A stretch of 64,000 nucleotides of DNA from Patescibacteria group bacterium. Its GTDB lineage: Bacteria > Patescibacteriota > Patescibacteriia > Magasanikbacterales > GWA2-37-8. Every line of letters begins with the position of its first letter. Position 1 is the first letter of the stretch. The position numbers were made by a program, and so were the translations under genes. Positions 13,432 through 64,000 of this stretch are shown one piece after another. Where the stretch lies: NCBI GenBank assembly GCA_028705565.1, contig JAQWDH010000001.1, forward strand, positions 20,363 to 84,362. Reading direction: 5' to 3'. The notes under the pieces were generated by a model that was not told where the DNA came from, ran no database searches, and saw nothing but the letters and a program-made list of their open reading frames with translations.

Positions 13432-13488
13432 AAAATAAATCCCAAATCCCCTGCCTACCGGTTTACATACCGTAGGTATGCAGGCAGG

Positions 13489-13580
13489 CAATGACCAATG
13501 ACCAATGACCAATGACCAATGACCAATGACCAATGACCAATGACCAATGACCAATGACCAATGACCAATGACCAATGACC
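13489..13580. repeat. Tandem heptanucleotide repeat (CAATGAC/GTCATTG) x ~13 at the 5' end of the flippase gene
   Basis: Read directly; in frame with the flippase ORF as (VIGHWSL)n. Confidence 0.9.
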
Positions 13581-13620
13581 GTTTAATTTCATATTCATTT
13601 TACCGCTTTTTTGGAATAAA

Positions 13621-45925: not shown

Positions 45926-46488
45926 ATCTCTCTTGTCATAAAAATCTCTCTTTTTAGGAGAGCCAAGTCCAAAATAAAATCGCGAAAGCAAGTTTGGACC
46001 TCTGGGTAAAGTCCTTAACGGACGCTTTAATATCAAATAAAAAATGTTACAGATATTAAATATTTACTTAGAGTGTTCAAGCGGCTGACGCCATACTTTT
46101 GGCGAATAGTTTTGAAGGCCGCTGTCAAGCGGTTCTTTATTTTTTAAAAATGATTTTGAACGGAGCAAAAAATTTTCGCGAATGAAAATTTTTTGCCTCG
46201 TTCAAAACGATTGAAAAGAATTGAGCGGGTGTAAGAACTTTGACAATCAATTAGTAAGTTTCAACAAAAAGGGTAGAACTCCCGCGCTGATTTTATTCGC
46301 GCGGGAAAAATAAGAAAGCACAATTTAGTGTTTTCGTAGTATGCAATTTTAACAAGAGCGCATGGCGGATGCCTTGACACCAAAAGACGATGAAGGACGC
46401 TGCAGGGTGCGATAAGCCTCGGAGAGGTCCCAAGCAACCTTTGACCCGGGGATTTCCAAATGGGGAAACCCGCCGGTGCGTAGCACCG

Positions 46489-46600
46489 GAATTTACCAAT
46501 TTACAATTTTCAATTTACAATCAACTCCAATTATCAATAATTTATTGAAAATTGCCGCATTGTAAATTTATTGAAAATAATTGAAAATTCCAGTGTTATG
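46489..46600 (+). other. 23S intervening sequence 1 (AT-rich CAATTT-repeat hairpin in the E. coli helix ~130-150 region)
   Basis: Insertion relative to conserved flanks GGGGAAACCC ... CTGAATACATAGG. Confidence 0.55.
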
Positions 46601-47154
46601 CATCGGCACTGTACACTGAATACATAGGTGTATGGAGAAGACCTGGCGAAGTGAAACATCTCAGTAGCCAGAGGAAAATAAATCTATAGAGATTCCCTTA
46701 GTAGTGGCGAGCGAAAAGGGAAAAGCTTAAACCATATAAGTGTTTCTTTGAGAATGATTGGTCTTAGGATTAGTCTAGTATTAAAGATTAAAGGGATAGG
46801 TCGTTGCTTATATGGGGTTGTAAGATATTGGCGCTGACTGCCTACTCAGTCAGATGATTGAATAACCTTCCTAGTAGAATGCTCTGGAAAGAGCAACCAT
46901 AGAGGGTGATAGTCCCGTACGCGAAAGGAGTTACAAAATCATAGCCGTTATTCTTGAGTAGGACGGAACTCGTGAAATTCCGTCCGAAGCCGGGCCGACT
47001 ATGGTCCAAAGCTAAATACTTTTGGTGATCGATAGTGGACAAGTACCACGAGGGAAAGGTGAAAAGCAGCCCGGAGAGGGCGATGAAATAGTATCTGAAA
47101 CCGTGCGTTTACAAAGAGCGGAAGGTCAACCACATCTCGCTTTGTTTGATGTGG

Positions 47155-47215
47155 AATTTCCAATTTCCAATTTATTTAGTTATTGATTTTTGGAGTTTGG
47201 TAATTCTTACACGTC
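47155..47215 (+). other. 23S intervening sequence 2 (GGAATTTCCAATTTCCAATTT... at the helix-25 region)
   Basis: Insertion at a classical IVS site; same motif family. Confidence 0.5.
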
Positions 47216-47757
47216 AAATGAAGTGAGATGTGGCGACCGACCGTGTTCCTATTGAAGAATGAGCCTGCGAGTGTATGTGTGCCGCTTTGCTTAAGGGCCT
47301 ATGGTCCGGAGGCGTAGCGAAAGCGAGTCTTAACGGGCGTATACCTTGTATCTTTATGGTGCGAGGTTTGTGGCACGTATATAACCCGAAACCGGGTGAG
47401 CTATCCATGACCAGGATGAACCCCGCCGAAAGGCGGGGGGAGGTCCGAACCCACGCGCCGTGCAACACGCGGGGATGAGTTGTGGATGGGAGAGAAATTC
47501 TAATCGAACTCGGTGATAGCTGGTTCTCCTCGAAATAGCTGTAGGGCTAGCCTCAAATGTTTCTATCGGTGGTAGAGCACTGGATGAAAATCGGGTCCTT
47601 CGGGATACCATTTTCAATCAAACTCCGAATACCGGTAGCCAAAATTTGGGAGTCAGACAGTGACGGCTAAGCGCCATTGTCAAAAGGGAAACAGCCCAGA
47701 TCGCAAGCTAAGGCCCCTAAATCCATGTTAAGTGTAACAAAGGTGGTTCTAGTTCTC

Positions 47758-47794
<37 letters not shown>

Positions 47795-47924
47795 TAAAGA
47801 AAGCGTAACAGCTCACTGGTCAAGAGTTTTAGCGCCGAAAATGTACGGGACTCAAACATGGTGCCGAAGCTGCGGACTATCCGTGCTTCACTAATGTTCA
47901 GCACAAATTTTCAAGTATCCTGCC

Positions 47925-48045
47925 TACCGGCAGGTAATTATCAATTTTCAATCAATTATCCAATTATCAATTTTTAAATTTCATTTTGGGTCATTAAAAT
48001 TTATTGAAAATTGTAAATTGTAAATTTTGTGGCGAGCGTTAGCGA
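47925..48045 (+). other. 23S intervening sequence 3 (helix-45 region, ~E. coli 1170)
   Basis: AT-rich CAATTATC/CAATTTT repeat hairpin between conserved blocks. Confidence 0.5.
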
Positions 48046-48552
48046 GGCACGGGTATTGGTAGAGGAGCGTTCCTAACTGCGCAGAAGTCCTAGGCGTGAG
48101 CCGGGATGGAGTGTTAGGAAGCGAGAATGCAGGCATAAGTAGCAAAAAGGCAGGTGAGAATCCTGCCCGCCGAAAACCCAAGGTTTCCTGGGCAACGAGA
48201 ATCGACCCAGGGTTAGCCGATCCTAAGGCCAGCCCGTCGCAAGGCGGGGTAACCGATGGAAGAGCTGGTTAATATTCCAGCGCTATATGCAGTTTGGTTT
48301 TTACTGCGCATCTTTAATTTTTAAGCGTGTTTTGGTTATACGCGCGCCGCAAGGCGGAGACAAAGCCCTCGGGTGGAGTCAACTTAAAATAACAAGGTGC
48401 CTAGAAAAGGTAAAAATCGTTAAGCTGCATGTAATCGTACCGTAAACCGACACAGGTGGGTAAGTCGAGTAGACTAAGGCGTATGAGAGAACCCTCGTTA
48501 AGGAACTCTGCAATACAGCGGCCGTAACTTCGGGATAAGGCCTGTCCGACCG

Positions 48553-48692
48553 TGCCTCACTGCGTTTGACGCGGAATGACCAATATAATTTTCAATTACC
48601 AATTTTCAATTTAAGAGTCCGACCGAGTCGGACACAATAGTTGATCATTGGAAATTGGAATTTGGAAATTCCGCCCGAGCATAGCGAGGTGC
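48553..48692 (+). other. 23S intervening sequence 4, a ~140-bp element (copy A)
   Basis: CCTCACTGCGTTTGACGCGGAATGACCAAT...GTCCGACCGAGTCGGAC...GGAAATTCCGCCCGAGCATAGCGAGGTGCGG. Confidence 0.6.
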
Positions 48693-48817
48693 GGTTGGAT
48701 TACAACAAAAGACCTCAAGCGACTGTTTACCAAAAACACAGCTCCCTGCAAAAGCGTAAGCTGAAGTATAGGGGGTGATGCCTGGCCAGTGTCAGAACGT
48801 TAAAGAGAGAGGTGAGC

Positions 48818-48957
48818 CGTACCTCACTGCGTTTGGTACGGAATGACCAATTTTCAATTACCAATTTTCAATTTAAGAGTCCGGTCGAGCCGGACACAAT
48901 AATTGATCATTGGAAATTGGAATTTGGAAATTCCGCCCGAGCATAGCGAGGTGCGGC
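48818..48957 (+). other. 23S intervening sequence 5, a near-identical second copy (copy B) of the 140-bp element in a different helix
   Basis: About 95% identical to copy A; separated by genuine 23S sequence (GACTGTTTACCAAAAACACAG). Confidence 0.6.
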
Positions 48958-49569
48958 GTAGCCTTGAACTGAAGCGCTGATGAACGCCGGCGGTAACTAT
49001 AACCGTCCTAAGGTAGCGCAATTCCTTGTCGGGTGAGTTCCGACGCGCATGAATGGTATAACGATTTGAGGACTGTCTCAACGAGGGACTCAGTGAAATT
49101 GCAAGGAAGGTGAAGATGCCTTCTACCCGCAACTAGACGAAAAGACCCCGTGAAGCTTTACTACAACTTGGCATTGGTATAAGGTTAAATATGTTCAGAG
49201 TAGGTGGAATCCCGACTTAGTCGGGAGACAATGAGACACCACCCTTACTTAATTTTATGCCTAATCTTCCGACTTGAATCAGCCGGAGGAGACAGTGTCT
49301 GGTGGGTAGTTTAACTGGGGCGGTTGCCTCCTAAAATGTAACGGAGGCGTTTACAAAGGTCAGCTTAGCTCGGATGGAAATCGAGCTGGACGTGCAAACG
49401 CAAAAGCTGGCTTTACTGCAAGGGCTACAACCCGAGCAGTCGCGAAAGCGGAAGTTAGTGAACCGACCATCCTATATAGGAAGGTGGAAGATCAACGGAT
49501 AAAAGCTACTCCGGGGATAACAGGCTGATCTAGCCCGATAGTCCACATAGACGGCTAGGTTTGGCACCT

Positions 49570-50420
49570 TAATACATCGGGGTGCTGCAGTAGTGATACT
49601 GCACCAAAAATTCGGCTTATAACGGTGAACCCGTCATTAAATGTATGGTATAATTAAAATAATAATCCATTTAATCGGCAACACCGTGGGAAGTCTTAAT
49701 CAAACACAAAAATCAATACTTATCGGAAGTCTCTTGGGAGATGGAAATTTGAGATTGGCAGAAGGAAAAACAAATGCTTTGTTTGAAGTAAATCATTCAA
49801 TCAAACAAAAATTGTATGTTGATTGGAAATATAATCAATTACGCCCATTCATTTTAACGGCTCCGAAAGCGAGAAGTTGTAATGGAAAACGAATTGCTTA
49901 TCGGTTTACGACACGCAGTTTGCCTGTATTTACTTCGCTCTACAGGGAATTCTACAGGGATAGTATAAAAGTAATTCCTTGTAATCTCACATTGACACCA
50001 TTAGCGCTCGCGGTATGGTTTATGGACGATGGCAGTAAAAGCCGTTCATCTATTTATCTAAACACGCAGCAATTCAACATTGAAGAACAAATTCGTTTGC
50101 TTCAATTATTGAAAAAGCAATTTAACTTGTCAGGCGCGCTAAATAAGGACAAGAAGTATTTTCGTATAAGAATAACATCGTCAAGCACAGCGCTATTTAA
50201 AGAAATAGTGCGGCCGTATGTTATAAAAATTTTTAATTATAAACTTGATTAATGACCCCGTAACGACTGACCCGAAAGGGGAGGTTCCGACCTTTTATGT
50301 CGGAACAACACGCCGACGCTTGTTTTACAAAAACCGAGATTATGCCGTTTAAGTCGGCTACGATCCGGAACAAGCAGAAGATATAGTCTACCCCATGAGA
50401 AATCATGGAATAATCGACAG
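49570..50420 (+). mobile_element. Group-I-type intron in the 23S rRNA (inserted after GGCACCT, near E. coli position ~2449) encoding a LAGLIDADG homing endonuclease
   Basis: Exon sequence GGCACCT | ... | CGATGTCGGCTCATC is interrupted by 851 bp containing the ORF; intron ends in G. Confidence 0.75.
49641..50252 (+). CDS. LAGLIDADG-family homing endonuclease (intron-encoded)
   Basis: Two LAGLIDADG-like motifs ([11 protein letters not shown] and [10 protein letters not shown]). Confidence 0.75.
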
Positions 50421-50467
<47 letters not shown>

Positions 50468-50480
50468 TGGCTGTTCGCCA

Positions 50481-50532
<52 letters not shown>

Positions 50533-50906
50533 CTATCTGTTGCGGGCGTTGAACATTGAGAAGACTCACTCCTAGTACGAGAGGACCGGAGCGGACGAAC
50601 CTCTAGTGTACCAGTTGTCCTACCAAGGGCATTGCTGGGTAGCTACGTTCGGCACGGATAAACGCTGAAAGCATCTAAGCGTGAAGCCGTCTTCAAGATT
50701 AATGTTCGTCATAGACTCCTTGTAGACTACAAGGTTGATAGGCGCTATGTGTAAGTTTAGTAATAAACTGAGCAGAGGCGTACTAATAAGTCAAGCATAC
50801 TACGAAAGCGCTAAGCGGTGCTTTTTGCACCCTTTTAAGTCCGCCCTGTCTGCCGACAGGCAGGCTTTGGCGGAAAGCCATTATAAAACAAAATTGAGTA
50901 TGAAGT

Positions 50907-56791: not shown

Positions 56792-57112
56792 TCAGGTGTC
56801 ATGTAATGTATTTTTTGAAATCTTATATTTTACTTTTAGATTTTTTATTCGTTCAATAATTTTATTATAGTGTTCTTTTAGCAAAAGCCCTTGCTTAAAA
56901 GTTGATTCAGCCGTCATTTCCAGTTTTTGCATTAATTTTTCATCAATTGCCACATCTTTTTCTTTTCTGGTTGCAAAAAGCAGAGCCCCAGGAAATGTTT
57001 CAGCAAAAACCGGATCGTTGGTGTTTTCTAACGCTGAAATTATTTCAAATAATCCGTCCACGGAATAAAATTGAGGCGGAATGTATTCGTTTTTGTTTTC
57101 TGAATTTTTCAT
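56792..57112 (-). CDS. Hypothetical protein
   Basis: ORF only. Confidence 0.3.
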   Translation of the reverse strand: MKNSENKNEYIPPQFYSVDGLFEIISALENTNDPVFAETFPGALLFATRKEKDVAIDEKLMQKLEMTAESTFKQGLLLKEHYNKIIERIKNLKVKYKISKNTLHDT

Positions 57113-57299
57113 ATTTAGTGAAATAGGGCTGTTTTTTGAGTTGCTCGAGTAAAATTTTTCTATACTTCATATTTATGACGATGCCGTATCATAAATGAAA
57201 TATGGTATCAATAGACTTAACAAGTCATACTAATTTTAGTGAAAATAAGTTCTCCATAATTGAAAAGTAAATTTTGAAAAATAAAGAATATTTTTTGTT

Positions 57300-57545
57300 A
57301 TTTCAGCCAACGTTCGCCATATTCGATGTTTTTGCGACCAACGGGAGCAAAAACATGGGAGAGGAAAATGGCGATTCCATTGAAAAAATTATTTATCGCC
57401 ATTTTCTGAACCGCATATATTGTGTTAGGCGTTGTAAAATTTTTACACTTTTTGTTTTTTTTTCGCTTACAGTTCAATCACGGGGGGCAAGGGGGGCCGA
57501 ATCCGTTCACTCAATATGGCGAAGGGGCAGAGACCTGCCCGCATA
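57300..57545. repeat. ~215-bp element copy A with terminal inverted repeats (TTCGCCATATTCGA ... TCAATATGGCGAAGG), 3' of fic
   Basis: About 90% identical to 58855-59080; internal 12-bp perfect hairpin GAAAATGGCGAT/ATCGCCATTTTC. Confidence 0.7.
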
Positions 57546-57618
57546 CCTACGGTATGTAAACCGGTAGGCAGGCAGGGGTAAGTGGGGTATGCTCTATAGC
57601 CATATCAATTATAATATT

Positions 57619-58530
57619 TTAGATGTGCTTTTCTGGTTTGTTTTTATCACTTTTTTGCGTGACACCAATTTTCCACACGCCTTTTTCCAGAAAGGCTTCT
57701 ATTGTCTGGCGCGTAGCTTTATTGATCAAATTAGAGTGTGAAATTTTATTCATTTTTCCATATTCAGCGAGTGTCATAATCTGCGCGCCCTCTAAATACG
57801 CCAGCCGTTTGTGGTAACTATTGGTAAGCGCCTTGCCGACTATTTCTTCCATAATATCCGTCGCGCCTTTGGCATCAAATTCTCTAAACGCTTCATAATA
57901 TTTATTTCTGTCAATAAATTTGATGTTTATCGGCACGAATCCTTCACGTATCAATAAATAATTATTTATTACACGTCCAATTCGGCCGTTACCGTCGCAA
58001 AATGGGTGGGTATATTCAAAAGCCAGATGCAATTTTGCAATCCTCTTGATTATATTTTCATGGCTCGTGGCATTGTATTCGGAAAGCATTTTTTCCAGCC
58101 GACCGACTACTTCTTTGGGGTTAGGAGCGATATGGCTGCCAACGCGCACAAATTCATTATCTTTTCTAAATCTTCCGGCAATATCATCACGGATATTTAA
58201 AATCAACATTTTATGAAGTGACAAAATTATTTCCAGGGTAAGCTCCTGTTCTTTGGCTCTTTGGTCAATATATGTTACTACTCGCGCTAAATTTTTTGCC
58301 TCAAACATTTCTCGTTCAGAGATGTATCGATCCAAATCTATCTGTAAAAGTATTTTTTCGGTTTCTTCCAATGTGAGTGTGCTGTTTTCGATAGCATTAG
58401 AGTTGTATACTTGCTCGGCTACTTCGGCTTCGCTGATTAACTTTAAAAGCGCCTGTTTACCAACAGCCACGGTATAGAAGCGTTCTCTTAATTTGGAGAT
58501 TGTGTTAAAAATATGTAGTATTTTAGGCAT
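57619..58530 (-). CDS. fic: Fic-family protein (putative AMPylator) with an intramolecular inhibitory motif
   Basis: Canonical HPFCDGNGRIGR Fic motif; upstream SNAIEN matches the (S/T)xxxE(G/N) inhibitory helix. Confidence 0.85.
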   Translation of the reverse strand: MPKILHIFNTISKLRERFYTVAVGKQALLKLISEAEVAEQVYNSNAIENSTLTLEETEKILLQIDLDRYISEREMFEAKNLARVVTYIDQRAKEQELTLEIILSLHKMLILNIRDDIAGRFRKDNEFVRVGSHIAPNPKEVVGRLEKMLSEYNATSHENIIKRIAKLHLAFEYTHPFCDGNGRIGRVINNYLLIREGFVPINIKFIDRNKYYEAFREFDAKGATDIMEEIVGKALTNSYHKRLAYLEGAQIMTLAEYGKMNKISHSNLINKATRQTIEAFLEKGVWKIGVTQKSDKNKPEKHI

Positions 58531-58854
58531 ATCTATTGTTAATAGTGAATAGTAATTCTACTATACACTATTTTCACTCTTTTGTCAAGATAACCGTGAA
58601 AAACTGTAAGAAATAAGTAATTTTTACGGTTATGGTGTGCTGTATGGCTCTATATCACTCAACCGATATAGTAATGTCAAGTGGTTAAGGCAACAGGTGT
58701 GCATTAGATAGATTTAATTTAGGATAACTCGTCTCGTCCGAGAATACGATGGGGTATTATACTTCCTCCCAATTTACTCAATCACATTCGCCCCCCCCTT
58801 CGTCAATCACCAATCACAAAAAAATAAAAAGTATAAAAATTTTATTTTGCATAA

Positions 58855-59080
58855 CGTTCCAGCGTATGCGATGTTTTTGCGACCAACGGGAGCAAAAATA
58901 TGGGAGAAGAAAATGGCGATGCCATTGAAAATAATATTTATCGCTATTTTCTGAACCGCATATACCGTGTTAGGCGTTGTAAAATTTTTACACTTTTTGT
59001 TTTTTTCGTTCGTCGTTCAATTGTGGGGGGGGGCGAATCCGTTCACTCAATATGGCGAAGGGGCAGAGGGGGTAGGGGTG
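58855..59080. repeat. ~215-bp element copy B, between fic and the AAA-ATPase gene
   Basis: Direct repeat of copy A. Confidence 0.7.
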
Positions 59081-59106
59081 AATGCCACGTAGCCATATCG
59101 CTCACA

Positions 59107-60540
59107 CTATATCAACAAGAAATAATCCAACGGGACTTTTACAATATTAGCATCTTCTAACAATGTCAGTTCATTATTACATATCACGATACCATACTTG
59201 GCTGAATGTACTTTTTTCATTGTATTTCTCACTTGTGTACCGAGTTTATCACCCATACCAACTTCAATTGGAATTATACTTTTTTCCGCGATGGTTAGAA
59301 TAAAGTCAGCGCCGCCTTTTGAACCGTCATGATTGAGAGCGCCGCGACTGCTGGCGACAAATTCCCGGTGTAATGTCATAGCCACGATATCTTCCATCAG
59401 GCGGCCTTTTTGACCGATGAAAATTTGTTCATTACCGGCGACAGAAAGAAACGCCGACCGCATCGCCGATGACATAAATTGATAACGGGATGGTTTTCTA
59501 ACTTTTTTGGAATTTGAGCCGTACGGCATAATGCGGATAAGCAACTCCGCCTGCTCCAGTACTTCAAGAATATTAGCGATAGTGTGCACGGTTGTCTCAA
59601 GTGTCACGGAAAGTTTTTGTACGCTTACCACATCGGATTCGGCTAATAAAAATAACACTCTTTTGATATAACCGAGTGTTTTATTATCAAAACGGCCCAA
59701 ATTCTGAACATCTTGGTTAATTACTTTGTCTAAGAGCAAGGAAATTGTTTGGTAAACCCGCACTTCATCTTTCATGCGAATTGCGAATGGTAATGTGCCA
59801 ATTTTTAAATATTCATCAACATAATGACGATCAATAGATGACCACGCGCTCATTACGCTTTGTTCATATTTTTTTAATTTTTCGTAGGCGTCTTTAGCAG
59901 AATCGGCACTAAATAAAGCTTCTTTTAAATTTCTCTTAAGATCTTTAACGGGAAATTTACCATCGCGAATCATTAAAAATTCAGTGAAACTGGTTGGAAA
60001 AAGTTTTTGGAAAATTGAACGACGAATTACATCGGGATTTGTTTGTAAAGAGACAGCCGACGAACCACTACAGACAACAAAAACTTTGTTTGATCGGTCG
60101 TAAACAGTTTTTAATACTGACGCCCACTTTGGATCGTACTGCGCTTCATCAATAAATATAAATATCGGTTTGGTAAGTTTTTCAAAACTTTCACCTATTA
60201 TTTTTTCGTAAGCTGTTAAAACATCTTTGAGAGATGAACCTAAAACATTTACCACTTCATCAAGTGAAATGTAAAGCATTCTTTGTTGGTCAACTTCTTG
60301 ATAATGATTTAGAAAAAGTTGAGCCAATATAGTGGTTTTGCCAACGCCACGAAGACCTGGAATAATAATCCACCGATCGTGGGCTTCTGGGTTATGCAAA
60401 AAATCTCTCAAGTATTTATCTATTTTAATATAGATATTTCTTTGGGGATATTTTTTGCCCTGTTCATCTTGTACATATGTTCGCAAGCGAAAGGGGATTT
60501 GGACTAACTGATTTTGTAGATATTTAAGGATTTCCTCCAT
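59107..60540 (-). CDS. AAA-family ATPase of the DUF4143-containing type
   Basis: Walker A IIPGLRGVGKTT (GxRxVGKTT type), Walker B IFIDEAQ; length and C-terminal region typical of the family. Confidence 0.65.
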   Translation of the reverse strand: MEEILKYLQNQLVQIPFRLRTYVQDEQGKKYPQRNIYIKIDKYLRDFLHNPEAHDRWIIIPGLRGVGKTTILAQLFLNHYQEVDQQRMLYISLDEVVNVLGSSLKDVLTAYEKIIGESFEKLTKPIFIFIDEAQYDPKWASVLKTVYDRSNKVFVVCSGSSAVSLQTNPDVIRRSIFQKLFPTSFTEFLMIRDGKFPVKDLKRNLKEALFSADSAKDAYEKLKKYEQSVMSAWSSIDRHYVDEYLKIGTLPFAIRMKDEVRVYQTISLLLDKVINQDVQNLGRFDNKTLGYIKRVLFLLAESDVVSVQKLSVTLETTVHTIANILEVLEQAELLIRIMPYGSNSKKVRKPSRYQFMSSAMRSAFLSVAGNEQIFIGQKGRLMEDIVAMTLHREFVASSRGALNHDGSKGGADFILTIAEKSIIPIEVGMGDKLGTQVRNTMKKVHSAKYGIVICNNELTLLEDANIVKVPLDYFLLI

Positions 60541-60811
60541 ATATTTGTATGTTAGTTAAGTGATATAGTAATAGCACTTACTATACTACTATACTGATAT
60601 AGTAATGTCAAGGGGTAGTTTTTTTGGTTAAAATATGGGGTTTTGTGACTATTTACTAAATTGAGTAAAGAATAAGTGTCGCTTGATTAGTGATAAATTT
60701 GTTTCGGTGGTAAACAGCTGAGAATTTTTTTGGACAGATTTTTTGTGTTTTCAACATAATGTCTTTCTATCCCCGACTGGATGTCATCATTATTCTCTTA
60801 TTAATAAAAAA

Positions 60812-61591
60812 TCAGAAATCGATATCGGAAAAAACTATTTTTCCGTCTCTATATGAAAACTCCAAAGAAATTGTCATGTCGTTAACTGATTTATTTTTGC
60901 TTTTTGTTATTATATTTATAATGGTTTCTATTTTTTCTCGATATAGATTTAAAAAATTATAAATTTCTCTAATCTCTTCTTCTTTTATTAAAGAATCTTT
61001 GTCTAACTTCTTGGTTGGTTTTAAAAATTCACCAGTTTTTTTAATGAATGTCTGAAAATTTGGATCATTAACATTAACATTGTTCAATATACCGGTACTT
61101 CTTGCGCCTTTATATATATCGAGTACTTCTTGTGTGGGCAACATCTCACCTTTTTCAAATGAAATTCTTCCTGATATTTTATCTTTTGTTTTTTCGGCAG
61201 GAGTTGCTTCTTGTAATATTAAGTACTTAACACTTGAATCGCTTTCAAATAAGGTATGAATTTTTTCAACTATTTTATTTATTTCTTCATCGTTCATCTC
61301 TTTTTCTAAATAGAAAAAAGGCATAGAAAGTTTATCTGGCATACAGGCAAACCTAACAACTAGCGGGGAATCGTGTGCTTGTAATTCTTCAAATATCTTA
61401 CCTTCTAACAGTTTAATTTCTGTTTTTTCAAAATAATCTGTTTTGGGGATTGGTAGTCCAACAGTTTCCAACAATTTAGTTTTTTTTATTTTATATGGAA
61501 TTTCAGGATCATTAAATCTTTCAATCATTTTATCAACCACTAATTCTTTTGGATCACCCTGTTCATTCATTGTATATTTTTCTTGTCTCAT
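60812..61591 (-). CDS. Hypothetical protein (259 aa)
   Basis: ORF only; AT-rich block. Confidence 0.35.
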   Translation of the reverse strand: MRQEKYTMNEQGDPKELVVDKMIERFNDPEIPYKIKKTKLLETVGLPIPKTDYFEKTEIKLLEGKIFEELQAHDSPLVVRFACMPDKLSMPFFYLEKEMNDEEINKIVEKIHTLFESDSSVKYLILQEATPAEKTKDKISGRISFEKGEMLPTQEVLDIYKGARSTGILNNVNVNDPNFQTFIKKTGEFLKPTKKLDKDSLIKEEEIREIYNFLNLYREKIETIINIITKSKNKSVNDMTISLEFSYRDGKIVFSDIDF

Positions 61592-61610
61592 AACATTATT
61601 TACAAAAAAT

Positions 61611-62030
61611 TTATTTTAACTTTTTGTATAGCTTATATTTATTAATAGAATTTTTATATCCCTCTCGCATGTTTAAATTTTCAACATCATCTAAAGATAC
61701 CCATGCATATTCTGTTTGTTCATCATTTAAATTATTTAATTTTATTATTGTGTCACCCATAAAGCATTCAAAGACAAGAATAATAAAATGATAATCTGTA
61801 TTATTAGCCGTTACTTCAAAAGACCAAGAGTCGATTATATCACCAATCTCAATATTTTTTAAACCTAATTCCTCCTCACATTCACGCTTTAACGCATTTT
61901 TTGGCGTCTCACTAAACTCAATACGACCGCCTGGTAGTTCCCACTTTCCCTTATGATCTTTAACAAAAAGTATTTTTTTATCACGATAGAATATCCCCTT
62001 GGTTGTCACTCTCTGAATTTGATTGTTCAT
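61611..62030 (-). CDS. NUDIX hydrolase
   Basis: Nudix box ELPGGRIEFSETPKNALKRECEEELGL. Confidence 0.8.
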   Translation of the reverse strand: MNNQIQRVTTKGIFYRDKKILFVKDHKGKWELPGGRIEFSETPKNALKRECEEELGLKNIEIGDIIDSWSFEVTANNTDYHFIILVFECFMGDTIIKLNNLNDEQTEYAWVSLDDVENLNMREGYKNSINKYKLYKKLK

Positions 62031-62034
62031 ATTT

Positions 62035-62919
62035 TTATATATTATTTAGTAAAATTTTATACATTGCCCAATTGTAGATATATAGACTGTAATCTTCCTT
62101 TTTTAATTTATCTGTTTTGGTTAAAATCTCTGATAACAATGTTCTCCTTTGTGTAAGATGATCCACAATTACAGAGGAGCCTTTCTCGGAGACTTTTTTT
62201 AAATCATGAAATAGACGCTTAATATCTTTATGTTGTACTGAATTATGCCAACATATCCAATCTAAAACATTTGATAAATAAATAAAATTGAAGGATTCTT
62301 TTTTAAAAATATCAGAAAGAGATTCTTTACAAAATGGATTTAAGTTAAAAATAAAAAATTTTATTAGTTGAATATTTTTTTTAACTTTTTTGTAATTTTC
62401 TTTATCGGAAAAAAAAGAACATTCTGAATTATTTTTTAATATTAAGTCTCTTTTTGTTAATTCGTGATTACGAGGAACGAATGGACGTAAAATATTTGGA
62501 ATTTTTGTGATTATTTTTCTTCTCATTAATTTTACCCACTCTGTTCTTATGCCATTTTTATTATAACCAAAGAAAATCAAAAATTCTTCATATTCTAAAT
62601 TAATTATAGAATTTTTAACAAGATAATTGTAAGCTACTTGTTTTGGTGAATAATCAAAGCCGAGTATAAACTTGGGAATGCCGTTGCTTTCGTTCAACAA
62701 ACTAAATAGTGGTATCCCGCTGCCAGAGGTGGCGAGTATTCTTTTATTATGCATATCGCCAATAAAGTCTTTTAATCTCCTAATATTTCTATTTGTCATT
62801 CTGTATTTAAAGCGTCTTTTTAGACCTTTATTAGAAAATCCAAAACATTGGTGTGTAAGGTTTATAAAATCTTCGTCGCTGTATTCTAAATAATCATTGG
62901 TACAAACTTTATTTTCCAT
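62035..62919 (-). CDS. Hypothetical protein (294 aa)
   Basis: ORF only. Confidence 0.35.
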   Translation of the reverse strand: MENKVCTNDYLEYSDEDFINLTHQCFGFSNKGLKRRFKYRMTNRNIRRLKDFIGDMHNKRILATSGSGIPLFSLLNESNGIPKFILGFDYSPKQVAYNYLVKNSIINLEYEEFLIFFGYNKNGIRTEWVKLMRRKIITKIPNILRPFVPRNHELTKRDLILKNNSECSFFSDKENYKKVKKNIQLIKFFIFNLNPFCKESLSDIFKKESFNFIYLSNVLDWICWHNSVQHKDIKRLFHDLKKVSEKGSSVIVDHLTQRRTLLSEILTKTDKLKKEDYSLYIYNWAMYKILLNNI

Positions 62920-63820
62920 ATGTTTTTATTTTAATCATTGGTGGTAATTTTTTATCCGCAATTTTTTGTTTTTTTGAAATAAAATCAGTTCCATTTTCCG
63001 ATATAAAATTTATTAATGTATCTGGTAATTTATTTGTATCTATTTTTAACCTCTTATTATCGTTAGCTATTCTTAAAAGTGTATGCAAAATATTAGAACT
63101 CATTTTGCCTAGCGAGATAACGCTTTGTAGCGCGTGGATTCTTTTTCCTAAATAAACCTGGGCAATCTCTGAACTTTTTAACTTAAAAACAGATTGGAGC
63201 AATACCGCCATTTCAACGCTATATCCTGAATAAAAATCAATCTTTTCTAAATATTTTTTTCTTCCACCATATTCACCAGACAACGGCTGGATAAAATCAA
63301 TTAATTCAGGGAATATTAAATTAATAAATGGCCTAACCATTATTTCCGTAACTCTGGCATCATTTTTGGGGCGATGATAATATCCTTTAACAAAATTAAT
63401 CTTGTTGTCCATAATCATCGGACCAACAACACCAGTTATAAATTGCTCGCCGACGTTCTGTATGTCTGTATCTATCCAAAAAATAATATCAGTATTTAAG
63501 TAGTATAAACTTGCCCACAAATTCCATCCTTTACCGCTTTGTAAAGAAACATTTATTTCTTTTGCTGATTGCTTGTCGGTAATTGTGTTAATGTTGAATT
63601 TTTTGCAAATTTCTATACTACCGTCAGACGACCCACTATCAATGGCAATAATCTCGTCTATTAAATTGTCGCATCTTTTAACGACCTGAATTGTTTTTGC
63701 TATTGTTGCTGCTTCGTTATAAATAGGCAAACACAAACCAACTGACAATTTGTTCTTTTCTTTATACGTAATTAAATCTTTTAAATTGTATTGTTTATAA
63801 CTAAAATATTTCATAATCAT
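62909..63820 (-). CDS. Glycosyltransferase family 2
   Basis: LSVGLCLPIYNEAATIAKTI...AIDSGSSDGS (GT2 DxD-type motifs). Confidence 0.7.
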   Translation of the reverse strand: MIMKYFSYKQYNLKDLITYKEKNKLSVGLCLPIYNEAATIAKTIQVVKRCDNLIDEIIAIDSGSSDGSIEICKKFNINTITDKQSAKEINVSLQSGKGWNLWASLYYLNTDIIFWIDTDIQNVGEQFITGVVGPMIMDNKINFVKGYYHRPKNDARVTEIMVRPFINLIFPELIDFIQPLSGEYGGRKKYLEKIDFYSGYSVEMAVLLQSVFKLKSSEIAQVYLGKRIHALQSVISLGKMSSNILHTLLRIANDNKRLKIDTNKLPDTLINFISENGTDFISKKQKIADKKLPPMIKIKTYGK

Positions 63821-64000
63821 TCGTTTAATAATGAAATTCCATTTTTTAATTTAGGTAAATTGAAATTGGAACAAATAGTTTGTCCTACGTCCGCAAAGGT
63901 ATTTCTGATTCCTAAATCCTTGCCCGTATTCAACGATTTAGAATATAAGAGTATAGGAACAAATTCTCTAGTATGTCCTCTTAAATTTATTGTAGGATCA

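Follow-up and report, generated by a model that had tools for sequence, protein, structure and literature searches.

Two repeats around a fic gene in a Patescibacteria genome as probable attC-like sites of an integron-like gene-cassette system

Introduction

Two features define integrons: an integrase that carries a special extra domain, and hairpin sites of loose sequence conservation. They have been reported mostly from Proteobacteria, from a few other phyla and, recently, from Archaea. The classical site is closed by two inverted boxes, R'' (RYYYAAC) and R' (GTTRRRY), and has extrahelical bases and an unpaired central spacer by which strand choice is set; the Vibrio cholerae array is a sedentary chromosomal integron with VCR-type attC sites. 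Xer recombinases act on one ~28-bp double-stranded dif site per chromosome. The IntI-specific additional domain comprises ~35 residues near patch III (PMC4889954, PMC9668308), and the IntegronFinder category CALIN denotes at least two attC sites with the integron-integrase absent (PMC4889954). Archaeal integron-integrases keep the additional domain, and IntegronFinder detected the accompanying attC sites, which conform to the classical fold (Ghaly et al. 2022, PMC9668308). Our literature search found no report of integrons in the CPR.

Here we analysed two repeats, A and B, in a 64-kb window (the whole stretch of DNA under study), together with their relatives in public metagenomes and MAGs. 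We consider it likely that both are recombination sites resembling attC and belong to an integron-like system of gene cassettes, one that occurs widely among Patescibacteria (CPR). Site structure and its covariation, array architecture, the positions of cassette boundaries, linkage to a recombinase and the differing cassette content of relatives were all computed here.

Two direct repeats in the window

The original prediction placed two copies, ~90% alike, downstream of fic and of an ATPase gene. Pairwise alignment bore this out: the alignment of the direct copies A (57320-57532) and B (58865-59068) spans 213 nt, including 9 gap positions, at 87% identity, which rises to 94% within the first 142 nt. 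Each lies 3' of one minus-strand gene, A after fic and B after the ATPase gene. The predicted size of ~215 bp was too small for what are two real repeats, with similarity reaching from ~57302 to 57610 in one copy and from ~58846 to 59100 in the other (blastn, E=1e-74). In copy A, similarity is broken by a 39-nt palindrome (57534-57572), a second copy of which lies at 13450-13488. An internal perfect 12-bp hairpin, also predicted, is perfect in A and contains one G:T pair in B (GGCGAT/ATCGCT). The case that had been named as refuting the prediction, two copies only and a simple local duplication, proved false: a third site lies on the same contig, 8.4 kb further on and just beyond the window, and public metagenomes and MAGs hold more than 150. 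The search for further copies that had been suggested returned many, and these separate cassettes in CPR arrays.

Two small plus-strand ORFs within the repeats (57274-57567 and 58900-59160) had been judged unlikely to be genes, and our data agree. The indels between A and B measure 2 nt and 7 nt, so the reading frame differs between the copies, and 5 of the 7 coding differences read off the alignment within the first 142 nt are non-synonymous. Together with length variation across the family in non-multiples of three, these frame shifts and mostly non-synonymous substitutions led us to reject the ORFs as genes. What had been taken for a GGGAG ribosome-binding site plus ATG is instead the P2 loop and the conserved junction TATGGG of the structure described below. 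A second coding candidate, a C-terminal remnant of a minus-strand gene (..VFAPVGRKNIEYGERWLK), was abandoned after the covarying structure became clear.

Site structure and covariation

A covariance model of the site, R1, detected 128 full sites in 57 sources, so that related loci hold at least 128 copies. The site core measures 89-145 nt across the family, and cores of ~130 nt stand at the start of each window repeat. In the model, the core is folded on the cassette-antisense strand: an R box of AAC/GTT closes the site, helix P1 of 11 bp follows, and the hairpins P2 and P3 complete a three-way junction with conserved junction bases (A(T/A)G, T(A/T)TGGGnGA and GAAC). Paired cells amount to 93.1%, compared with 72.1% in shuffles and 27-49% with partners slid; 24 of 28 pairs have changed on both sides, and compensatory cells number 588 against 147±9 in shuffles. 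On the motif strand, G:T pairs outnumber A:C pairs (99 versus 54, p=3e-4), a modest asymmetry that comes from a model-fitted alignment of non-independent copies.

Like the sites of sedentary chromosomal integrons, the CPR sites are imperfect palindromes with RYYYAAC/GTTRRRY-like boxes. Among 126 distinct sites, the box consensus is RY(A/C)TAAC...GTTR(T/G)RYG, with AAC and GTT 96-100% conserved and one degenerate position per box departing from the classical consensus. Pairing stands at 97-100% at AAC:GTT and falls to 88% and then 62% at the next two positions outward, as chimeric sites would lead one to expect. Unlike those of sedentary chromosomal integrons, the CPR sites have a conserved three-way junction as their interior, where classical sites have a terminal structure that varies freely. 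Another difference is the asymmetric spacer that separates the R box from the helix after it (3-4 nt versus 1 nt), with GT plus 1-2 nt unpaired on the 5' side and T on the 3' side; the site alignment contains no consistent bulged bases inside P1, and we identified no extrahelical bases. A branched fold with conserved sequences at its junction is more typical of functional RNA than of classical attC sites.

The core could alternatively be a structured non-coding RNA, for instance a 3'-end or antisense RNA whose target is the cassette gene convergent to it, with arrays existing since the RNA gene travels with accessory genes. Such an RNA would account for the strong covariation, the three-way junction, the nearly invariant junction bases and the folding z-scores of the window copy (-4.0 and -4.5), and a TTGACA-N17-18-TATAAA-like stretch can be read from the alignment on the motif strand of the commonest subtype. 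Folded single-stranded DNA predicts covariation equally, however, and an RNA leaves unexplained the AAC/GTT boxes, the G|TT junctions, the drop in pairing outside AAC:GTT and the recombinase at nine array heads. Moreover, Rfam gave no match at gathering scores for the window and 16 related loci and nothing relevant for the window even at E<=10, and a consensus scan found no plus-strand promoter-like site ahead of either window core. We therefore regard an RNA as unlikely and retain the reading of the cores as attC-like sites. The hairpin sequence itself had no match in the literature.

Arrays and cassette boundaries

The family is widespread. A 20-mer from the P2 hairpin was found at no fewer than 120 metagenome and 119 genome loci, and further R1 sites occur in MAGs named Saccharibacteria, Uhrbacteria, Gracilibacteria, Peregrinibacteria and Patescibacteria. 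Genome contigs contained no match to a 22-mer taken at the right end of the repeats, and viral contigs none to an 18-mer of the same region, so this region is specific to the sub-family of the window. Arrays hold 2-7 sites with a median spacing of 888 bp, co-oriented in 36 of 37 multi-copy loci and in 70 of 71 adjacent pairs. Exactly one ORF occupies 50 of 70 intervals, 78 of 89 ORFs are antisense to the motif strand, and several putative cassettes carry 2-9 genes. Sedentary chromosomal integrons likewise show mostly one-ORF intervals with ORFs opposite the folding strand, and the high similarity of many sites within one lineage recalls the VCR array of V. cholerae. The CPR cassettes differ from theirs in commonly having their own promoter and a conserved 3' stem-loop.

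This architecture bears on the terminal inverted repeats that the original prediction assigned to both copies. They are present in copy A only (TTCGCCATATTCGA / TCAATATGGCGAA); the left end of copy B, TTCCAGCGTATGCGA, does not pair with its right end. A MITE, whether it had inserted on two occasions or moved fic within a composite element, would fit the 11+2-nt inverted repeat of copy A (57313-57326 versus 57511-57523) and a multi-copy element that breaks assemblies. We find it barely credible: the left arm is missing in copy B, the supposed terminal repeat is not conserved family-wide and its left arm is the 5' strand of P1, and transposon insertions would not give co-oriented neighbours that lie antisense to the adjacent ORF. 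The TAAC boundary showed no target-site duplications, and no transposase is linked. In place of a MITE-like anatomy, each element combines an attC-like folded core with the 3' module of the upstream cassette; nor do the elements bracket fic symmetrically, being direct repeats that each form part of the 3' end of the preceding gene.

Comparison of related loci located the cassette boundaries. Break points of similarity cluster at TAAC. One cassette, the Ltp cassette, stands behind four unrelated upstream sequences, always with the junction N|GTTGTGCG (also given as N|GTTGTGCGAAAT), and ends in ...ACGTTA followed by divergent downstream DNA. One locus, L027, is 90.7% identical to window positions 60787-63490, yet has other cassettes at the junction. 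Both the G|TT cassette junctions and the chimeric sites have counterparts in sedentary chromosomal integrons.

A recombinase at array heads

A gene for a ~270-aa tyrosine recombinase stands divergently at the array head of nine loci (L033, L088, L008, L095, L099, L246, L248, L249 and L250), as expected of a sedentary chromosomal integron, in which a divergent tyrosine recombinase gene adjoins an array of co-oriented sites. At L033, L088, L008, L095 and L099, it adjoins the first cassette and lies on the motif strand. Eight homologues were fetched by protein alone, and sites are present at all four with usable upstream DNA (L246, L248, L249 and L250), with 1-4 sites on the divergent side and 0 on the other; the remaining four contigs, which end 67-1128 nt upstream of the recombinase gene, are outside this count. 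The motif strand is the sense strand of the recombinase in 9 of 9 loci. The platform is chromosomal and lies beside the housekeeping genes lepA, uvrB and cca, and cargo comprises accessory, toxin and restriction-modification genes; sedentary chromosomal integrons resemble it in both respects.

By sequence comparison, the recombinase is related to both XerA and IntI. Among solved structures, it matches the XerA proteins from Pyrococcus (4a8e, 148 bits) and Thermoplasma (5hxy) best, and 3 of 4 recombinases tested passed NCBIfam NF040815 (XerA_Arch). The N-terminal half aligns well to VchIntIA (2a3v, 84 bits), and two separate stretches match TIGR02249 with 187-220 bits, under the cut-off of 265. 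In the alignment to VchIntIA, the IntI-specific domain is absent, with 23 residues where IntI4 has 66; this absence, at a length of ~270 aa, sets the protein apart from the integrases of sedentary chromosomal and archaeal integrons alike. Like archaeal integrons, the CPR arrays show an integron architecture in uncultured, MAG-derived lineages that lie beyond the bacterial phyla in which integrons are classically found. The closeness to XerA is a likeness to archaeal XerA and bacterial XerC/D, whereas arrays of 2-7 structured sites of 90-145 nt that separate accessory genes are unlike Xer/dif. The recombinase belongs to a very large family (7351 proteins at E<=1e-30), which might serve, additionally or even exclusively, as the Xer that resolves chromosome dimers in the CPR.

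Sites and cassettes in the window

Both window cores score far above chance in R1. Site A (57302-57431, plus strand) matches over its full length at 60 bits (E=1e-17) and is also an nhmmer match. It consists of an R box CCAAC...GTTAG, a poorly paired P1, P2 (TTTTTGC/GCAAAAA), the conserved junction CATGGGAGA and P3 (GAAAATGGCGAT/ATCGCCATTTTC), with 4-5 non-standard pairs in P1 and the R box. Its motif (folding) strand is the plus strand, antisense to fic, and the predicted crossover lies between 57310 and 57311 (AA|C). Site B (58846-58976, plus strand; 82 bits, E=3e-25) has an R box ATAAC...GTTAG, a partly paired P1, and P2, junction and P3 like those of A; its crossover is predicted between 58854 and 58855.

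The left 56-58 nt of Site B are 100% identical to the commonest family type (for example, L055 and L039) and its right half is of the L252/L114 type, which makes it a hybrid. Because both window sites have a hybrid appearance and poor P1 pairing (P1 and R box together contain 3-5 non-standard pairs), they have probably decayed; that they still serve as efficient substrates is less likely than that they are remnants of earlier cassette movement. The hybrids are better accounted for by homologous recombination of one site with its neighbour. A crossover inside the core was rejected as a general rule for hybrids, since P1 is 93.6% paired in arrays with very different P1 sequences, so that both P1 strands travel together.

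Fic/Doc proteins share the active site HxFx(D/E)GNGRxxR and an inhibitory helix (S/T)xxxE(G/N). The fic gene (57619-58530, minus strand; Pfam PF02661; NCBI 'Fic family protein' MDD4476606.1) encodes 303 aa that contain both HPFCDGNGRIGR and SNAIEN, as had been noted from the letters. The predicted fic cassette spans 57311-58854, between the crossovers of Sites A and B, with its gene on the minus strand. Its start (58818-58855, plus-strand coordinates) reads GTTATGCAAAATAAAATTTTTATAC... on the minus strand, and an inverted-repeat scan paired this stretch, at 82% complementarity, with 58969-59006 across core B; the flanks of core B could thereby lengthen the R-box helix. A promoter-like site internal to the cassette (58560-58588, minus strand; TTGACA-17-TATAGT) agrees with the consensus at 11 of 12 positions, a consensus match only.

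The neighbouring AAA_14/DUF4143 ATPase gene (59107-60540, minus strand; 477 aa; Pfam PF13173 and PF13635) belongs to a cassette that ends at 58855 and has lost its upstream boundary: likeness to the intact L252 cassette begins at 60644, and an unfiltered R1 search of 60541-60811 found no site closing it. A promoter-like site (TTGACA-17-TAGTAT) lies at 60583-60611 on the minus strand, and the motif CTTGACATTACTATATC is common to this region and to 58650-58685 upstream of fic. Beyond Site A, a probable next and last cassette (56792-57310, minus strand) starts with GTTGGCTGAAAT..., compared with the usual cassette start GTTnnnnGAAAT and the family-wide left-flank consensus TTC-RY-(A/C)TAAC. Its 106-aa ORF (56792-57112) matched no Pfam family, and no further R1 match follows.

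Between core and stop codon lies a 3' module. That of the fic cassette (57432-57610, plus strand), delimited by the blastn comparison of A with B, comprises one AT-rich and one G-rich stretch as well as a terminal stem-loop (57514-57605) with the conserved loop AGAG..GGGGT.., which the 39-nt palindromic insertion disrupts. The ATPase module (58977-59100, plus strand) shares 86% nucleotide identity with the same module in L252-L254, and its stem-loop is intact (59050-59098; ATATGGC...GGGGCAGAGGGGGTAGGGGTGAATGCC...GCCATAT), ending 8 nt from the ATPase stop codon. These features could suggest an intergenic REP-like or terminator module, locally copied, that stabilises or terminates accessory-gene mRNAs and has no recombination role: each copy stands directly 3' of a gene, a long covarying stem-loop adjoins the stop codon in the window and at ~50 other loci, and a 3' end signal is plausible because cassettes have their own promoters. 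Yet no T run follows the stem-loop on either strand, and a terminator scan matched neither stem-loop nor core A, its sole match being a 6-pair stem in the P3 hairpin of core B (58926-58912, minus strand). Such a module would cover the 3' module only and not the three-way-junction core, the AAC/GTT boxes, the junctions or the recombinase linkage, and we hold it to be very unlikely for the element as a whole. The terminator or regulatory role that was originally suggested may apply to one sub-part, the predicted stem-loop directly after each stop codon.

Read as attC-like sites with the boundary and recombinase data of related loci, the window elements would make fic and the ATPase gene cassettes of a CALIN-like cluster. 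Each with its own promoter-like site, the two probably lie at the tail end of a cluster that comprises at least three co-oriented sites and has no recombinase close by. The likeness to CALIN (two co-oriented sites in the window, a third 8.4 kb on, no recombinase) is conditional on accepting the sites as attC-like; CALIN sites are those recognised by the IntegronFinder attC model, and those of the window are degenerate hybrids recognised here with R1. A tblastn search found no array-type recombinase within the 64-kb window, so nothing local shows activity. In essence, the suggestion of a mobilised fic cassette with the elements as its limits is supported: fic lies between two co-oriented recombination-type sites, and Fic genes recur as cargo in the related arrays L250, L152 and L245. 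The same applies to its neighbour: in Magasanikbacteria MAGs, another CPR lineage, the ATPase cassette lies between two R1 sites at 86% nucleotide identity, with different neighbours.

Proposed mechanism and implications

We infer a mechanism in which the cassette-antisense strand would fold as single-stranded DNA through the R box, P1, P2 and P3, and the array-linked ~270-aa recombinase would recombine the sites at G|TT. A gene and its site would be excised as a circle, which would then be inserted at an attI-like GTT beside the recombinase gene.

With slightly less than even confidence, we propose that Patescibacteria carry a distinct, previously undescribed integron lineage, with a short XerA/IntI-like recombinase that lacks the IntI-specific domain and long three-way-junction sites with AAC/GTT boxes. 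Such a lineage might be sister or ancestral to classical integrons, or an independent invention from Xer, and would be a main exchange route for defence, toxin and surface genes in tiny genomes. If true, it would show which features of integrase and site single-strand cassette recombination really needs, bear on how integrons arose from Xer recombinases, and explain the shuffling of accessory genes (fic, restriction-modification systems, NUDIX, methyltransferases) in ultra-small symbiotic bacteria. In practical use, the R1 model shows where cassettes begin and end in CPR MAGs and accounts for breaks between their contigs.

A plasmid collection gave no match to a class-1 element or to a mob-associated hairpin region, and an oriT/relaxase origin of the CPR element was not adopted, relaxase genes occurring only beside unrelated 'class 2' hairpin loci. 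The P2 hairpin also occurs beside relaxase genes in Bacteroidota, which hints at a shared single-strand DNA signal.

A family of structured sites

Two direct repeats in the window (57320-57532 and 58865-59068; 87% identity over 213 aligned positions, E=1e-74) each lie just 3' of a minus-strand gene. Copy A follows fic (57619-58530, minus strand; Pfam Fic) and copy B follows an AAA_14/DUF4143 ATPase gene (59107-60540, minus strand; Pfam), in agreement with the original prediction, as are the motifs HPFCDGNGRIGR and SNAIEN in fic. Identity is 94% across the first 142 nt, and similarity reaches beyond the repeats to ~57302-57610 and ~58846-59100, split in copy A by a 39-nt palindrome (57534-57572) whose sole other window copy is at 13450-13488. 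The TIR-like ends proposed for both copies occur only in copy A; the internal 12-bp hairpin pairs perfectly in A and contains a single G:T pair in B. The small plus-strand ORFs are indeed unlikely to be genes, since similarity crosses frame-shifting indels and differences are mostly non-synonymous.

The 20-mer of the first hairpin (TGCGACCAACGGGAGCAAAA) matched at least 120 loci in metagenomes and at least 119 in genomes, which divide into classes; about half resemble the window element over its entire left part and far beyond, with the consensus ATTTCnnnTAAC-GT-[P1]-GATG-[P2]-TATGGGAGA-[P3]-GAAC-[P1']-T-GTTAnnCG. A covariance model, R1, built on 15 diverse copies with the window copies left out, found exactly two sites when run on both strands of the window, core B (58846-58976, 82 bits) and core A (57302-57431, 60 bits), both on the plus strand. 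The same genome holds a third site, on the same contig just beyond window position 64000 (L002 3069-3174, 86 bits), and 128 sites were found in 57 sources, so the repeat is a member of a large family rather than a simple local duplication with two copies only. Genome loci L125-L204 added 34 sites, mostly in MAGs named Saccharibacteria, Uhrbacteria, Gracilibacteria, Peregrinibacteria or Patescibacteria (CPR). No Rfam family matches the element. Near-identical sites of the commonest type (104–118 bits) also occur on six contigs (L167, L138, L165, L158, L134, L164) binned as Micrarchaeota, Gammaproteobacteria, Bacteroidales and Deltaproteobacteria, reflecting either mis-binned CPR contigs or cross-lineage cassette transfer.

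The core, 89–145 nt in the well-paired set, is a three-way junction of an R box (AAC/GTT), helix P1 and hairpins P2 and P3. Across these four helices in the 128-site alignment, which was fitted to R1 so that pairing is somewhat inflated, 93.1% of cells are paired (72.1±0.5% in shuffles, 27–49% with slid partners), 24 of 28 pairs have changed on both sides (19.3±1.1 in shuffles), and so have 588 cells (147±9 in shuffles). Raw sequences contain many different, perfectly complementary P1 sequences inside single arrays, and junction bases are almost invariant in the family alignment. The core structure is real. G:T pairs exceed A:C pairs on the motif strand (99 vs 54, p=3e-4), a modest sign that this may be the folding strand. 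A structured RNA encoded by the core would account for the covariation and conserved junctions but leaves unexplained the closing boxes, cassette junctions and recombinase linkage described below, and we consider it unlikely.

Cassette arrays and boundaries

Of the 37 loci that have at least two sites, 36 carry all of them on one strand; among adjacent pairs, 70 of 71 share an orientation, and the median start-to-start spacing is 888 bp. Of 70 intervals, 50 contain a single ORF (at least 50 aa), and 78 of 89 ORFs run antisense to the motif strand; each gene is therefore followed by a site with the non-coding strand as putative folding strand. L041, for example, packs seven sites into 4.4 kb, and L035 has six within 5 kb. 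This orientation bias, together with a copy B devoid of TIRs, leaves hardly any room for the view that the elements are MITEs. Cargo includes restriction-modification, DNA and small-molecule methyltransferases, NUDIX, radical SAM, Ltp lipoprotein, Bro-N and Fic. The third site of the window genome is preceded by an Eco57I-type restriction-modification gene, a 246-aa gene and an AAA_15/AAA_21 ATPase (L002 1-3174); L246, whose array is complete, has a similar Eco57I-family gene (654 aa) and a 245-aa gene together in one cassette.

Sites are closed by the family consensus RY(A/C)TAAC ... GTTR(T/G)RY, very close to the R''/R' consensus of integron attC sites, RYYYAAC/GTTRRRY. AAC:GTT is paired in 97–100%, and the next two positions outward in 88% and then 62%, a drop that fits a flank beyond AA|C contributed by the next cassette. 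In pairwise comparisons of loci, the points where similarity ends cluster at TAAC. One Ltp cassette, ~90% identical across L033, L088, L045 and L008, stands behind four unrelated upstream sequences, joined every time at N|GTTGTGCGAAAT, and terminates in ...ACGTTA before divergent downstream DNA. As the L033 and L088 recombinases are only 40% identical, this cassette resides in two different platforms.

A linked tyrosine recombinase

Clustering of all ORFs in site-bearing loci placed a ~270-aa tyrosine recombinase among the most recurrent families. It lies on the motif strand, divergent from the first cassette, in L033, L088, L008, L095 and L099, with no R1 sites on its other side. As an independent linkage test, eight homologues (58–65% identical) were fetched via the protein alone: all four with >1.2 kb of upstream DNA (L246, L248, L249, L250) have one to four R1 sites, oriented as predicted, on the divergent side, and the remaining contigs (L244, L245, L247, L251) end 67–1128 nt upstream of the gene. 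Such breaks fit repeat-rich arrays starting there and suggest that CPR MAGs under-represent such arrays. The genes downstream of the recombinase are housekeeping ones (lepA, uvrB, cca), so the platform is chromosomal.

The recombinase family is very large (7,351 proteins at E<=1e-30). Three of four tested members pass NF040815 (XerA_Arch, ‘tyrosine recombinase/integron integrase’), and the NCBI automatic name already mentions ‘integron integrase’; TIGR02249 (integron integrase) scores 187–220 bits in two stretches, below its cut-off of 265. In an alignment with VchIntIA (2a3v), 23 residues of the recombinase stand against 66 of IntI4; it thus lacks the IntI-defining additional domain (PMC4889954; PMC9668308). 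On this one defining test, the IntI-specific domain, the CPR system falls outside the integron family, and its sites differ in their conserved branched interior.

The window elements are nonetheless probably attC-like sites of an integron-like system. Sites probably folded as single-stranded DNA would undergo site-specific exchange at G|TT, putatively catalysed by the array-linked recombinase and passing through circular intermediates, much as in a sedentary chromosomal integron. Computation establishes the structure, array layout, cassette boundaries, recombinase linkage and turnover, and the DNA folding, catalysis and circular intermediates are inferred. No paper that connects CPR/Patescibacteria with integrons or attC sites turned up in our literature searches, which is no proof of novelty.

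The window cluster and its turnover

Read along the minus strand, a seven-gene block ends with a 259-aa gene (61591-60812), with no site between it and the ATPase promoter. A promoter-like site (60611-60583) precedes the ATPase gene, followed by a stem-loop (59098-59050) and site B. The fic cassette starts at 58854 (GTTATGCAAAAT...), with a promoter-like site (58588-58560), fic, a stem-loop and site A; the last cassette starts at 57310 (GTTGGCTGAAAT...) and carries a 106-aa ORF. The minus-strand motif CTTGACATTACTATATC is common to the upstream regions of fic and the ATPase gene (58650-58685, 60581-60616); the site at 58588-58560 is a better promoter-like sequence, nearer the fic start.

Cassettes turn over between relatives. 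L027, 90.7% identical across window 60787-63490, has a full site directly after the 259-aa gene and then quite different cassettes, including a second site that is divergent in sequence and intact in structure. The ATPase cassette recurs in Magasanikbacteria MAGs (86% nucleotide identity), where an R1 site lies on either side of it and its neighbours differ. In the window, similarity to that cassette runs from 60644 to 58946, inside core B. On one Magasanikbacteria-related contig, an IS110-family transposase (DEDD_Tnp_IS110 and Transposase_20; L253 41-982) adjoins the upstream site of this cassette.

The left 56–58 nt of core B are identical to the commonest family type and its right half belongs to the L252/L114 type, which leaves its P1 mismatched; core A and the downstream site of L252 also have mismatched P1. 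We read such sites as hybrids from homologous recombination between neighbouring sites, which would also delete cassettes. With that origin, the window sites would be decayed. No recombinase was found near their cluster, which fits the CALIN category (attC sites lacking an integron integrase). The window proteins are MDD4476601-607 from a Patescibacteria group bacterium MAG. Contigs of three other samples are 100% identical wherever shared, and three of the four identical contigs stop inside a repeat or at its border, because repeats cause such breaks.

Associated hairpins and a 23S rRNA insertion

Many cassette genes have a stem-loop directly after their stop codon (window 57514-57605 and 59050-59098; ~50 loci, for example L039 4632 and L250 8260), with a covarying stem, a conserved loop AGAGGGG-N(3-7)-GGGGTGAAT and then CTCCTTATT. 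The stem-loop is at times tandem (L002 2895 and 2966), and neither strand has a T run after it. A terminator or REP-like module may describe this stem-loop but does not describe the core, and as an account of the elements it is highly improbable. The loop of site A's terminal stem-loop holds the GC-rich 39-nt palindrome (CCTGCCTACCGGTTTACATACCGTAGGTATGCAGGCAGG) at 57534-57572; the copy at 13450-13488 adjoins ~13 tandem CAATGAC copies (13489-13581), and the palindrome may be a small mobile hairpin.

The P2 hairpin TTTTGCGACCAACGGGAGCAAAA (window 57329-57353 and 58874-58898), itself variable in sequence inside the CPR family, recurs with 20–25 nt of identity in unrelated settings (‘class 2’ of loci L005-L124, and L125-L204). 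It lies upstream of mobC/relaxase genes on Bacteroidota-like contigs, oriT-like and followed by a second long hairpin; within a different multi-copy repeat in Lentisphaerota/Victivallaceae MAGs; and once just ahead of an rpoC-like start in a Rickettsiales MAG. Possibly it is a shared single-strand DNA signal.

Elsewhere in the window, the 23S rRNA match (46342-50806) spans 4,465 nt against a 2,925-nt model, implying ~1.5 kb of insertions. Introns with homing endonucleases are common in CPR, and a 203-aa ORF within the match (49641-50252), with the LAGLIDADG-like motifs LLGDGNL and FMDDGS, suggests one here.
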